DNA from: a virus
Direction: 5' to 3' (one strand)
IMG/VR virus record: IMGVR_UViG_3300029807_000001
Coordinates: 29,667 to 93,666 of that record
DNA: 64,000 bases
The position numbers were made by a program, and so were the translations under genes. Below the pieces are notes generated by a model. That model saw only the letters and a list, made by a program, of their open reading frames with translations. It made no database searches and was not told the DNA's origin. Each line of letters opens with the position of its first letter. The first letter of the stretch is position 1. This document shows positions 1-3,457 of this stretch, one piece after another.

Positions 1-144
1 GCGAGAAGTTTACGGCTGCACACATCTATTATGCGTAGATGGAGATTAAAGAGAAAAGATGCTGAAAGACTATATGGTAAGGGTACTGCTCCAGTATTGA
101 GTAAGCCTTTTGCTTTACGACTATCGAGGTATGTAAACCCATGA
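1..144 (+). CDS. ERLYGK-family micro-protein 1 (5'-truncated by the window edge)
   Basis: Frame 1 is open from base 1 to TGA 142-144: ...MRRWRLKRKDAERLYGKGTAPVLSKPFALRLSRYVNP. The stop overlaps the next ATG (ATGA). Not in the ORF track. Confidence 0.65.
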   Translation, partial: ARSLRLHTSIMRRWRLKRKDAERLYGKGTAPVLSKPFALRLSRYVNP

Positions 145-320
145 TAACAGCAACAGATATACGTGTGAAACGTCAGTCAGCCATGATGCGACGGTGGCGC
201 ATAAAGAGAAAGAACGCGGAAAGACTATACGGTAAAGGCTCAATTCCTAATCCTCGTAGAATCTTTGGTGGACGATTGAACATGGTTCGCACTATAAAGG
301 ACATATTCGGAAAATGTTAA
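141..320 (+). CDS. ERLYGK-family micro-protein 2 (59 aa)
   Basis: MITATDIRVKRQSAMMRRWRIKRKNAERLYGKGSIPNPRRIFGGRLNMVRTIKDIFGKC. Close paralog of ORF1 and coupled to it by ATGA. Confidence 0.7.
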   Translation: MITATDIRVKRQSAMMRRWRIKRKNAERLYGKGSIPNPRRIFGGRLNMVRTIKDIFGKC

Positions 321-454
321 ACAACAATAGTGCGTTGAGGTCTGCTATGTATGCGTTAAGACAGTCTTACCAAATAGTAGACAAGGCTACGAAAGCAAGG
401 GAACGTAGAGAAAGAAAAGAACGGGAGAGACTTTATGGTAAGCAAGGCACATAA
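314..454 (+). CDS. ERLYGK-family micro-protein 3 (46 aa)
   Basis: MLNNNSALRSAMYALRQSYQIVDKATKARERRERKERERLYGKQGT. Overlaps the previous stop codon. Confidence 0.7.
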   Translation: MLNNNSALRSAMYALRQSYQIVDKATKARERRERKERERLYGKQGT

Positions 455-605
455 CGATGCTTTTGACGCATTGATTCTTGCTGCGGCTAGAACGAAAGAT
501 TCTTGGGAATGTGTGACGAAAGCTATAAAGGTAATGAAGCGTGGCTTTGTAAAACTGGAACGTAAACGAATAAAGAATCAGGAGCGTCTGTATGGCAAAC
601 GTTAG
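435..605 (+). CDS. ERLYGK-family micro-protein 4 (56 aa)
   Basis: GGAG-N7-ATG start. MVSKAHNDAFDALILAAARTKDSWECVTKAIKVMKRGFVKLERKRIKNQERLYGKR. Confidence 0.75.
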   Translation: MVSKAHNDAFDALILAAARTKDSWECVTKAIKVMKRGFVKLERKRIKNQERLYGKR

Positions 606-741
606 ATGGAATCCAGAACAATTCAAAGCGATTGATAAATACATGAAATCGTGTGTACGCAATTATGAAATACGTAAAATGGTTGATATACGTACAAAGA
701 AGAAAGAAAGGGAGCGTCTGTATGGCAAACGTAACAGTTAG
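592..741 (+). CDS. ERLYGK-family micro-protein 5 (49 aa)
   Basis: GGAG-N7-ATG start. MANVRWNPEQFKAIDKYMKSCVRNYEIRKMVDIRTKKKERERLYGKRNS. Confidence 0.75.
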   Translation: MANVRWNPEQFKAIDKYMKSCVRNYEIRKMVDIRTKKKERERLYGKRNS

Positions 742-904
742 AATAGGTTCTACAATACCACATCCACAATCCGTACTTGGACTAGCTCAGCTTCCAGCAC
801 TAATAAGGTCCAAGAAAGACTTCGAAGTACTAAGAAGACATCAAATACAAATATGGCGTAAGCATTGGAGAGAGAAGGAGCGGGTGTATGGCAAAAGGAA
901 TTGA
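722..904 (+). CDS. ERLYGK-family micro-protein 6 (60 aa, ERVYGK variant)
   Basis: GGAG-N7-ATG at 722, preferred over the track start at 653. MANVTVRIG...IWRKHWREKERVYGKRN. Confidence 0.75.
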   Translation: MANVTVRIGSTIPHPQSVLGLAQLPALIRSKKDFEVLRRHQIQIWRKHWREKERVYGKRN

Positions 905-1073
905 TGTACATTACAGCAACTGGAGCGTAGATGGCAAGTTGTATAAAAACGTTAACACCAAGATATATGCTCCATACGGACTAGATATGGTTCCTTACCT
1001 AAGTATGAGCCTTAAACAAATAAGAAAATGTAAGACAAATTGGGAGCGTTTATATGGCAAAGGAAGTAACTGA
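888..1073 (+). CDS. ERLYGK-family micro-protein 7 (61 aa)
   Basis: GGAG-N7-ATG start. Ends KQIRKCKTNWERLYGKGSN. Confidence 0.75.
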   Translation: MAKGIDVHYSNWSVDGKLYKNVNTKIYAPYGLDMVPYLSMSLKQIRKCKTNWERLYGKGSN

Positions 1074-1548
1074 TAAATCAAGATACCCCTCCAAGTATAG
1101 CCCTAGCGAGTACGTCACTGGAGCACAGTACATCATCGAACTCGTGTGTGAGTACCGAGCTAGACATTTGAAGATAGACTTACCTAGACAATTCTGGAAG
1201 CTTCCAGAGTGGGCTAGTTATTTCTCTGCTCAAACTAGGTCTGTTCATAAACTATTAAGCAGTTTCGATGAAAGGGCCATAATAAATACAGTTAAAAATA
1301 GCAAGGTCAGGAGTTTACTGCCGAGGTGGATACCTTCTGCCGTGGCTAAGGAACAGAAAAAAATAGATGGAGCAAAAAAACAGAAAGAACAAGAAAATAT
1401 CAACAAACCTAAGAGCAAGAAGGGTATAATAGATATACCGACGAGACGCACTGTCCACCACGGCACTTCTGCTATGGACAAGCTCTTAGCACTTGATATT
1501 GAGGCATACGAAAATGGCAAAGAAGACTGCGAAGAAAAAAGAGACTAA
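1054..1548 (+). CDS. hypothetical phage protein (164 aa)
   Basis: GGAG-N7-ATG inside the last ERLYGK repeat. Overlaps the recA start. Confidence 0.8.
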   Translation: MAKEVTDKSRYPSKYSPSEYVTGAQYIIELVCEYRARHLKIDLPRQFWKLPEWASYFSAQTRSVHKLLSSFDERAIINTVKNSKVRSLLPRWIPSAVAKEQKKIDGAKKQKEQENINKPKSKKGIIDIPTRRTVHHGTSAMDKLLALDIEAYENGKEDCEEKRD

Positions 1549-2590
1549 AGAAGAACCTAAAAAGGTACTGACGATAGAAGACAAGTTGAAGAAGAAGTTT
1601 GGAGATCAAGCATTTACTACTGGTCGTTACATTACCGAAGCAAAGAAAGTTATAGTGCCAGTTAGTCCCGTTATAGATTGTATGCTCGGTGGAGGAATTC
1701 CATTCGGGTCTTTTGTGATACCTACTGGCCCTCCCAAGGTCGGTAAGACCGTTACGGCACTAGATATGGCTGCTACTGCCCTGAAAATACCTTCCGAATT
1801 TGAAAACAAGCGTCACCTATACTTCTTCAATATAGAAGGTAGGCTTAACGCTAGAGACCTAGCTGGTATCCACCACATGATACCACATATAGACGAAGAT
1901 GTTACTGTTATAGGATCGTATCCTGGTAAAATCTATACCGCAGAAGACTATTTAGACATAGGTGAACAACTTATTAATGAGAAGCCTGGATGCATCTTTA
2001 TATTTGACTCCTTCTCTCAGCTATGTAGCAAATCTGGCAGAGCAAACGAATGGGACGGAAAAGCTTATCGAGACGATGTACCTAAAATGTTATCGCAGTT
2101 CTGCAAGAGAATCTCTAACGTCATACCTATCAACAAGTCTATAGTAGTAGGAATTACACACCAGATAGCAAACACTGGCTTCGGATTTTCGGCATGGGCA
2201 GAAGCGTCTGGCACAAAGATTCAATATCAGGTAGACGTAAAACTAAAAGCATGGAGTAACGACTGGAAGGACGGAGAGACTGATACTGTTATAGGTAAGA
2301 ATATCGAATGGCAGTGTCTATGTTCTCCGCTACTGAACGGTCCTAATGTGCCAAAGTGTACGTCTAAGTTTAGATACGGGTACGGACTAGACAAGCCTTT
2401 AGAATTAGTGAATATGGCTATAGATTTAGGTATTATTCGTAAGGCTGGGTCTTGGTATTATTTTCCAGACGAAAGCAAGGTGCAAGGAATCGAATCCGCG
2501 AGACCAAGACTAATGGAAGATGACGTACTGTATCAAACTGTCAATGAGAAATACCGTGACATGATGGGACTGCCTAGTGTTAGTATATGA
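1514..2590 (+). CDS. recA: RecA/UvsX-family recombinase
   Basis: LGGGIP, Walker A GPPKVGKT, IFIFDS (Walker B), ASGTKIQYQVDV, and C-terminal GIIRKAGSWYY. Likely start is MAKK at 1514, after GAGG. Confidence 0.92.
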   Translation: MAKKTAKKKETKEEPKKVLTIEDKLKKKFGDQAFTTGRYITEAKKVIVPVSPVIDCMLGGGIPFGSFVIPTGPPKVGKTVTALDMAATALKIPSEFENKRHLYFFNIEGRLNARDLAGIHHMIPHIDEDVTVIGSYPGKIYTAEDYLDIGEQLINEKPGCIFIFDSFSQLCSKSGRANEWDGKAYRDDVPKMLSQFCKRISNVIPINKSIVVGITHQIANTGFGFSAWAEASGTKIQYQVDVKLKAWSNDWKDGETDTVIGKNIEWQCLCSPLLNGPNVPKCTSKFRYGYGLDKPLELVNMAIDLGIIRKAGSWYYFPDESKVQGIESARPRLMEDDVLYQTVNEKYRDMMGLPSVSI

Positions 2591-2972
2591 TCTAGAAAAT
2601 AATGAAACCAAGTGGCAGATGGCAGGCAAGGAAGTTACACTCGATACTAGACCGCGATCAGCGTTGCATGTAAAGGCACGAGGTCTAATAAAAGAGAGGT
2701 TCCCTACACTCCTAGTATTAGAAGAAGTACCTATAAAAACACATAGGACTAAAACCCTGTACCTGGACTTCTATCTACCACTGAGAAAATTAGTGGTGGA
2801 GGTCCACGGCCAGCAACATTATAAGTATAGTAGTCAGTTCCATTCCACGGCACTGGAGTTTTTGAAGCAACAGAAAAATGACGAAGAAAAGATACTGTGG
2901 TGTGAGATTAACGGCATAGAAATTTTAGTACTACCTTACGATACGCAGAAAGATTGGAAAGAACAGTTATGA
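2577..2972 (+). CDS. Vsr/DUF559-like endonuclease
   Basis: EE...LYLDFYLP...VVEVHGQQHY...D.EK..WC..NGI motif pattern. Confidence 0.8.
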   Translation: MLVYDLENNETKWQMAGKEVTLDTRPRSALHVKARGLIKERFPTLLVLEEVPIKTHRTKTLYLDFYLPLRKLVVEVHGQQHYKYSSQFHSTALEFLKQQKNDEEKILWCEINGIEILVLPYDTQKDWKEQL

Positions 2973-3457
2973 GTATAACACAAAAAGATAAGTTAAAGAT
3001 GCGTAACCAAGTGTTGGACGACTACGAAGGTAAGGTAGGTCTCCCAGAGAACAATGCTCCAGGAGACAACGCTGAGTTGCAGGAATATTTAAGTATGGAT
3101 AGACAGGTGATAGAAGCTATGAGTCCTAACAGGGCTATATCTATTTCTATTAGACTATCTCAGTATCAGTTTTATCTACAGAGATGTCTCAATAGGGAGA
3201 AGGCTATTAAAACTTGGTCAGAATCTGAGTTAAATTCTATAGCCGCCGTGAGTATATCTCAGTATGATAAGTTCCTCAAACATGACATGAAAATGGCTTT
3301 GATAGCAAAAGATAACTCAGCAGCTAAAGAGCTATACAAGATGCTTGCGTATGCTACCCAGAGAATAGACAGACTGTCTGAACTATCTAGTGGTATTAAG
3401 AATCTGTCATACGTGATCTCTCTCATATATAAACACAAGCTAGGAGAAGCTTCATGA
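2969..3457 (+). CDS. helical protein, possible UvsY-like recombination mediator
   Basis: ATGA-coupled ORF that looks all-helical and sits just after recA. The function is a positional inference only. Confidence 0.4.
   Translation: MSITQKDKLKMRNQVLDDYEGKVGLPENNAPGDNAELQEYLSMDRQVIEAMSPNRAISISIRLSQYQFYLQRCLNREKAIKTWSESELNSIAAVSISQYDKFLKHDMKMALIAKDNSAAKELYKMLAYATQRIDRLSELSSGIKNLSYVISLIYKHKLGEAS

Follow-up and report, generated by a model that had tools for sequence, protein, structure and literature searches.

The source record is a 93,666-bp (93.7-kb) IMG/VR virus record with an estimated completeness of ~62% (CheckV). The window, meaning the whole stretch of 64,000 nucleotides that was analyzed (G000:C1:29667-93666), starts inside an array of tandem mini-genes, and the upstream part of the array was read from the full record. 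The ORFs of the full record place 14 tandem mini-genes, encoding proteins of 46-98 aa each, at G000:C1:28343-30739 (window -1323 to 1073), in a 2.4-kb array whose first 1323 nt lie upstream of the window. An earlier, sequence-only reading of the window had described copies of the repeated junction that are genuine but represent only the tail of these 14 units. The array is one co-directional block with no intergenic space, bounded by the conserved core genes p190 (190 aa) upstream and p164 downstream, and unit 1 starts with a TAATG overlap on the stop of p190. The features of the array tail and of the adjoining core genes are as follows (window positions, plus strand).

1..144, with its start 41 nt earlier at G000:C1:29625, plus strand: unit 8, 61 aa, with an internal ERLYGK at 64-81
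141..320, plus strand: unit 9, 59 aa, closely paralogous to unit 8, with ERLYGK at 219-236
314..454, plus strand: unit 10, 46 aa, ending in …KERERLYGKQGT; junction GGAG-N7-ATG at 424-437
435..605, plus strand: unit 11, 56 aa
581..602, plus strand: dual-coding junction of units 11 and 12 (GGAG, 7-nt spacer, ATG), the same 22-mer as 711-732
592..741, plus strand: unit 12, 49 aa
711..732, plus strand: dual-coding junction of units 12 and 13
722..904, plus strand: unit 13, 60 aa from the ATG at 722, with the variant ERVYGK
877..895, plus strand: dual-coding junction of units 13 and 14
888..1073, plus strand: unit 14, 61 aa, the last mini-gene
1043..1061, plus strand: last junction, whose ATGGCAAA is the start of core gene p164
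1054..1548, plus strand: p164, 164 aa, with an invariant QFWKLPEW, next to the UvsX-like gene in 37+ array-less related contigs
1514..2590, plus strand: RecA/UvsX-like recombinase, 358 aa (PHROG 97, E = 2.5e-28)

At 12 of the 14 junctions, the upstream ORF contains, within its 3' end and on the same strand, the SD and start codon of the next gene. The junction codons xxG-GAG-Arg-Leu-TAT-GGN, which encode most of the motif E-R-L/V-Y-G-K, also read as GGAG, a 7-nt spacer and the next ATG. This ATG consists of the last two bases of the Tyr codon and the first base of the Gly codon, and always begins 10 nt downstream of the Glu codon's first position. The overlaps at these coupled junctions are 14-38 nt long, and the distance from motif to stop varies from 2 to 10 codons. 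The proposal that the junction is dual-coding is thus borne out: the 14-38 nt that end one gene also supply the SD and start of the next, and the chain consequently stays in phase. In the window, the ATGs at 435, 592, 722, 888, and 1054 were verified, each within the TAT-GGN of ERLYGK or ERVYGK and with an xG-GAG 7 nt upstream, as were the repeat spacings of 157, 130, 166, and 166 nt, all 1 mod 3 (Glu codons at 425, 582, 712, 878, and 1044). No stop codon interrupts the noted ORFs, 581-602 and 711-732 carry one and the same 22-mer, and the last copy is indeed the start of the 164-aa gene preceding the RecA/UvsX-like gene.

Over 48 nt, the repeats, which code in two frames, are 41-79% identical, and they are spaced 115-277 nt apart. 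A degenerate ERLYGK-coding pattern occurs 11 times in the forward and 0 times in the reverse orientation of the whole 93.7-kb record, all within one 2.2-kb cluster, and the junction 19-mer with no more than three mismatches occurs 4 times versus 0.01 expected. The GC content of the array is flat at 0.39-0.45, flanks included. With a codon model derived from the long genes of the phage, the annotated frame was the best of six in 15 of 15 segments (unit interiors, with junctions excluded). In both codon usage and GC content the units match the phage.

Units 8 and 9 depart from the general pattern. The motif of unit 8 has GCT-GAA in place of GGAG, and the protein continues for 21 aa past the motif to a degenerate second junction, …RYVNP-stop, ATGTAAACC. 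Unit 9 has GCG-GAA and TAC, leaving neither SD nor ATG, and its protein continues for 28 residues to a tail, …IFGKC-stop, that is possibly a degenerate junction. Unit 9 starts with an ATGA overlap; the overlap is 4 nt between units 8 and 9 and 7 nt between units 9 and 10. Units 8 and 9 may each consist of a canonical unit fused to a short one that followed it. The tail of unit 8 (window 120-144), where …RYVNP-stop is encoded over TATGTAAACCCATGA, resembles CATGGTAAACCATAG at the end of unit 7, and the tail of unit 9 (window 296-320), …KDIFGKC-stop, also has the look of a decayed second junction.

Homologues of the units and relatives of the locus

A profile built from the 14 units was run against 5.8 billion proteins by a word index and, exhaustively, against 1.84 billion representatives. 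In these two sets it matched only the 14 proteins of the phage itself and two ENA proteins, and it recovered all 14 units with E values of 4e-14 to 5e-4 among the 1.84 billion. Each of the ENA proteins, P0016 and P0011, is listed for one 693-bp contig, which the two very probably share. P0016 (70 aa) aligns with unit 5 over its full length at 38% identity, but in its last 16 residues it resembles unit 4 (81% identical) more than unit 5. The last 28 residues of P0011 (44 aa) are 86% identical to unit 6, and its N-terminal part is unalignable and 7 residues shorter. The end of P0016, …YGKRT, and the start of P0011, MANAP, are the expected products of the same dual-coded junction, and for this reason the ENA relative very probably has its counterparts of units 5 and 6 in the same order.

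Searched singly, unit 3, the longest, has no homologue at all. Neither Pfam nor PHROGs contains a family for any unit, the ESM Atlas gave no usable match for the units, Rfam gave no match at the locus, and a literature search for the ERLYGK motif found nothing. Scans of IMG/VR returned 2 matches to the exact pattern and 62 to the protein-level junction pattern, all single, and no other array; since none of them lies in an array or ends a small ORF, they were treated as chance or unrelated matches. In blastn, window positions 1-3000 had no match in 50,697 phage records. The UvsX-like protein reaches 26% identity or less in isolates by tblastn, indicating that the phage has no cultured relative. 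On the evidence of these sequence searches, the mini-gene family is private to the lineage.

Relatives of the locus were gathered via p164 and then via an alignment of its homologues, yielding 5 metagenome and 37 IMG/VR loci. Among these loci, the block p163-p190-p164-UvsX is widely conserved (tblastn). The site between p190 and p164 is either empty or occupied by one unrelated ORF; in most relatives the two genes abut or overlap, with a gap of 2-41 nt. The two nearest clades, L013 and L080-82, whose p164 is 53-57% identical, have a single gene of 138/146 aa at the site. These genes are homologous to each other (E = 2e-14), and unit 1 shows no similarity to them (E = 1.4). Elsewhere the site is occupied by a 175-aa ORF (L096-98) or a 56-aa ORF (L101). 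The ERLYGK-type motif is absent from all of the fetched loci (5 metagenome and 37 IMG/VR). Because the relatives differ at this site and have no array there, we consider the site to be a variable spot and the array to be lineage-specific. In several clades, the accessory genes at the p190/p164 site begin on the stop codon of p190.

The p164 homologues of the array-less relatives begin ATGGC[A/T/C]AA[A/G]GA, i.e., MAK(E/D), and thus the core-gene start ATGGCAAA is already present in relatives that have no array. It follows that the 3' half of the junction is the ancestral start of the core gene. Within the array, neighboring junctions resemble each other more than expected for a random arrangement (p = 0.02), and the adjacent units 8 and 9 are clear duplicates.

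Origin of the array

The array is, with good probability, a lineage-specific multigene family that arose by tandem duplication in situ at a variable site, with translational chaining of its members. It was probably seeded at the overlap of one accessory gene with the native ATGGCAAA start of p164, and would then most likely have grown in place by tandem duplication via unequal recombination or slippage, the N-terminal parts diverging after duplication. Growth from the p164 start by duplication fits the p164 start of the array-less relatives, the likeness of neighboring junctions and the pair formed by units 8 and 9. Whole units may not all share one ancestor, since their N-terminal parts are mostly unalignable (3 of 91 pairs at z > 3 in an all-against-all comparison), and capture of unrelated heads onto a shared tail is also conceivable.

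For translation of the chain, the codons of x-E-R-L-Y-G would provide a good initiation region: GGAG, a 7-nt spacer, ATG, then GCA-AA. A ribosome ending one mini-gene would stop 14-38 nt beyond the start of the next, so that de novo initiation, termination-reinitiation or a combination of the two could serve to translate the chain. De novo initiation would occur at an SD held single-stranded by upstream ribosomes, and reinitiation after termination 14-38 nt downstream would be an alternative or an added route. Coupling of overlapping genes in polycistronic operons by termination-reinitiation has been reviewed (Huber et al. 2019, PMC6728339; PMC10666635) and is best documented for -4/-1 overlaps (PMC10666635). 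The locus resembles such operons in its co-directional genes, in the placement of the downstream SD and start in the upstream 3' end, and in the lack of intergenic space. It differs from them in its long overlaps (14-38 nt, against 4 or 1 nt as a rule), in the twelvefold repetition of the junction, and in that the overlapped codons encode a selected peptide motif. Published tight coupling concerns mainly 4- and 1-nt overlaps (PMC6728339, PMC10666635), so coupling in the array is put forward as a proposal.

The sequence-only reading had suggested an expandable cassette array of the integron or CRISPR kind, with the junction as the site of insertion; this part of it gains no support here. The related and improbable alternative to duplication in situ is that the ~20-40-nt junction is a recombination or insertion site at which units are shuffled in frame, in a PeSL- or integron-like manner and perhaps driven by the adjacent UvsX-like recombinase. 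The geometry would allow it, since in-register recombination of one junction with any other would insert or delete whole units and leave a chain that is still translatable. Junctions 11 and 12 share the identical 22-mer although the unit bodies are unrelated, and P0016 has a tail nearer to unit 4 on a body that matches unit 5; together, the identical 22-mers and the mosaic look of P0016 are a hint, at the sequence level, of exchange or conversion between tails. The variability of the site among relatives is likewise compatible with shuffling.

Against a dedicated system, searches with PF00589 and PF00239 for tyrosine and serine recombinases gave 0 matches in the 93.7-kb record, which is ~62% complete (the controls were positive); the sequence-only reading, too, had seen no dedicated integrase nearby. 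There are no inverted repeats and no attC-like hairpin at the junctions. RNA folding of the 14 junction regions gave z-scores of -2.3 to +1.4, with no shared or unusually stable structure, and promoter- and terminator-like sites are not above shuffled expectation, with none at a junction. In these tests, the locus thus shows none of the hallmarks of an integron, a CRISPR array or a PeSL cassette.

An outside origin of the segments between the repeats, to be sought by homology search, also found no support: in the searches made, homologues of the units are confined to the lineage and reveal no external pool of cassettes, and codon usage and GC content are native. The array is absent from the 42 loci, and the ENA orthologues of units 5 and 6, which appear to keep their order, differ internally, including the 7-aa length difference, and not at the repeat, which counts against an insertion site at the junction. 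Gain or loss of units by homologous recombination between junctions would be geometrically possible.

Several known systems provide points of comparison. PeSL (promoter-early stem-loop) cassettes are found in the hyperplastic regions of T4-type phages (Arbiol et al. 2010, PMC2839356; PMC4122927). PeSLs are intergenic sigma70-type promoters with terminator hairpins; shuffling and mini-circles have been shown experimentally, and recombination between PeSL repeats is the proposed route of shuffling (PMC2839356; PMC4122927). As in those regions, small ORFan genes of a large lytic-type phage lie in a variable stretch between core genes and are flanked by a short repeat, and the repeat carries expression signals, so that any unit bounded by it would be expressed. 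In contrast, the ERLYGK repeat is coding, its signals are translational rather than transcriptional, it has no hairpin or promoter, and any shuffling at it would be hypothetical. Integron arrays are likewise rows of short promoterless co-directional genes with a repeated element between them, but IntI, attI and attC hairpins are lacking here, the repeats are coding, and the units have no homologues elsewhere. CRISPR arrays consist of non-coding, near-identical and regular repeats accompanied by cas genes and a leader, whereas the present repeats are coding, diverged and irregularly spaced.

Tandem paralogue expansions of small early genes occur in large phages. The array is like them in having many small, fast-evolving paralogues back to back in a phage; the family of the ERLYGK helix is distinct from them and private. 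Membership in one paralogous family is indicated by a shared homologous segment, the 13-residue anchored motif, under purifying selection with pS far above pN. The closest published analogues are coupled overlapping genes and, by analogy in the evolutionary idea, PeSL cassettes (PMC2839356). What is new here is a private tandem family whose conserved peptide motif doubles as an initiation region, 12 times consecutively. The locus shows how small basic proteins can multiply into a large private family of a phage at a variable site between core genes. Should units indeed be exchanged through the junctions, this would extend the PeSL idea from transcription to intragenic translation signals and help to explain the expansion of ORFan mini-gene arrays in phages.

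Two layers of selection on the junction

An anchored codon table separates the requirements of the initiation signal from those of the peptide. The residue before Glu is variable (R/Q/L/W/K), and yet the third base of its codon is G in all 12 coupled copies; this fixed G is an SD constraint. Glu is encoded by GAG in 11 of the 12 coupled copies, and the Tyr position is xAT in all 12, including a copy with a Y to H change that still keeps CATGG. At the protein level, Arg is encoded by CGT (7), AGA (6), or CGG (1), and Leu by five kinds of codon (CTG, CTT, CTA, CTC, and TTA). Gly is invariant, whereas the overlapping second residue of the next gene is G, A or V. Conservation extends to 21 nt upstream of the SD, with R(-7) in 13 of 14 units, K/R(-3) in 13 of 14 and E/N/D(-2) in 14 of 14.

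In units 8 and 9 the peptide is retained although GGAG is absent, as is the ATG in unit 9. Over the 19 codons around the motif, this pair has a pS of 0.86 and a pN of 0.09; pooled over all 91 pairs of units, the ERLYGK codons have a pS of 0.68 and a pN of 0.08. Retention of the peptide in the two units that are missing the SD is a protein constraint. The codon table and the pS and pN values thus separate both layers, and the ERLYGK peptide and the initiation signal are each under selection.

That the ERLYGK peptide is functionless, a mere by-product of selection for a strong purine-rich initiation region, is very unlikely. The GGAG, the 7-nt spacing, the ATG and the GCA-AAA second and third codons are those of the usual good starts of the phage, and the K/R/E-rich stretch upstream is purine-rich, as such selection would have it. 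It would not, however, maintain the peptide in units 8 and 9 under saturated synonymous change, conserve R(-7) 21 nt upstream of the SD, or fix Gly while the next gene's second residue varies; nor does it account for the switching of Arg between CGT and AGA or for the range of Leu codons. A pure nucleotide-level explanation is largely refuted by units 8 and 9 and by the synonymous codon switching. The locus is a clean natural case of sustained dual coding, in which one 18-nt stretch is selected both as a helix-end peptide and as RBS plus start codon, 12 times consecutively, and two copies without the second role let both pressures be told apart.

The mini-proteins and the neighboring core genes

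The conserved part of the mini-proteins is a 13-residue stretch near the C-terminus, R-x3-K-[E/N]-x-E-R-L-Y-G-K. AF2 (AlphaFold2) predicts a confident helix over residues 41-61 of unit 1 (pLDDT ~79-92) and two helices for unit 11, the second of which (residues 21-53) spans the basic stretch into ERLY. The conserved stretch is confidently predicted to be part of a C-terminal basic helix whose end is at the Gly. The pI is 9.2-11.9 in 13 of the 14 proteins, and the net charge reaches +14. The N-terminal parts are fast-diverging and the C-terminal helix is conserved. Given the high positive charge and the conserved face of the helix, the proteins may bind nucleic acid or a shared partner and present variable heads. 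Our guess is that the helix binds nucleic acid or docks a shared partner and that the variable heads serve host takeover or counter-defense. The mini-proteins are candidate host-takeover or counter-defense factors, and the shared helix could be used as bait.

A bolder version of the family origin, to which we assign a small but appreciable chance, joins these ideas with those on recombination. The ERLYGK helix would be a docking or nucleic-acid-binding handle for 14 heads, and its coding DNA an in-frame recombination joint, such that units could be duplicated, lost, or exchanged between co-infecting phages and expressed at once, in a design that recurs in uncultured phages. If true, this would be a translation-level, intragenic counterpart of the PeSL cassettes.

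Tandem short peptides with one conserved segment and an otherwise hypervariable sequence also resemble precursor arrays, and the mini-genes could in principle encode RiPP-type precursors, or secreted or packaged peptides, with a conserved C-terminal recognition 'follower' and hypervariable cores. We find this hardly credible, as no modifying enzyme, protease or transporter family was recognized beside the array, and the products are highly basic helices without Cys/Ser/Thr-rich cores; RiPP precursors were rejected on both grounds, the lack of tailoring families nearby and the unsuitable composition of the peptides. One long gene with repeated +1 frameshifting, or a decayed repeat-protein pseudogene, has next to no likelihood and was rejected: the +1 shift at every junction and the SD-like GGAG upstream recall some programmed frameshift sites, but each of the shifts falls on an ATG whose spacing from the SD is optimal, no slippery site is present, the number of codons between motif and stop varies, and the junctions of units 8 and 9 and of units 9 and 10 are ordinary ATGA-type overlaps.

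Next to the duplicated family lie core genes with features of their own. No Pfam or PHROG family was found for p164. With its QFWKLPEW and YSP motif, it invariably lies immediately ahead of the UvsX-like gene in 40+ contigs of uncultured phages (L009-L115), and it may be a recombination accessory protein. The ATG of the UvsX-like gene (MAKK…) lies 35 nt within the end of p164 (window 1514-1548), and long overlaps with MAK starts thus characterize the whole gene block and not the array alone. Upstream of the window, this block also includes the conserved pair p163-p190 (G000:C1:27280-28343). At its N-terminus, p190 is weakly HTH-like (Pfam HTH_38, only E = 0.077), and p163 matched nothing in Pfam or PHROGs.

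In several relatives, the UvsX-like gene is interrupted after residue ~78-80, near Walker A, by ~0.9-1.0 kb, after which the match continues, at the following positions.

L093:6503-8515: interrupted UvsX-like gene
L102:6407-8443: interrupted UvsX-like gene
L014:1438-3282: interrupted UvsX-like gene
L086:1613-3448: interrupted UvsX-like gene

The interruption suggests an intein, or an intron with a homing-endonuclease insertion. The UvsX-like gene of the window is uninterrupted. It is directly followed by a small DUF559/HNH homing-endonuclease-like gene (window 2619-2969; PHROG 559/9084, E ~1e-14), which occupies the same place in relatives L009 and L010.
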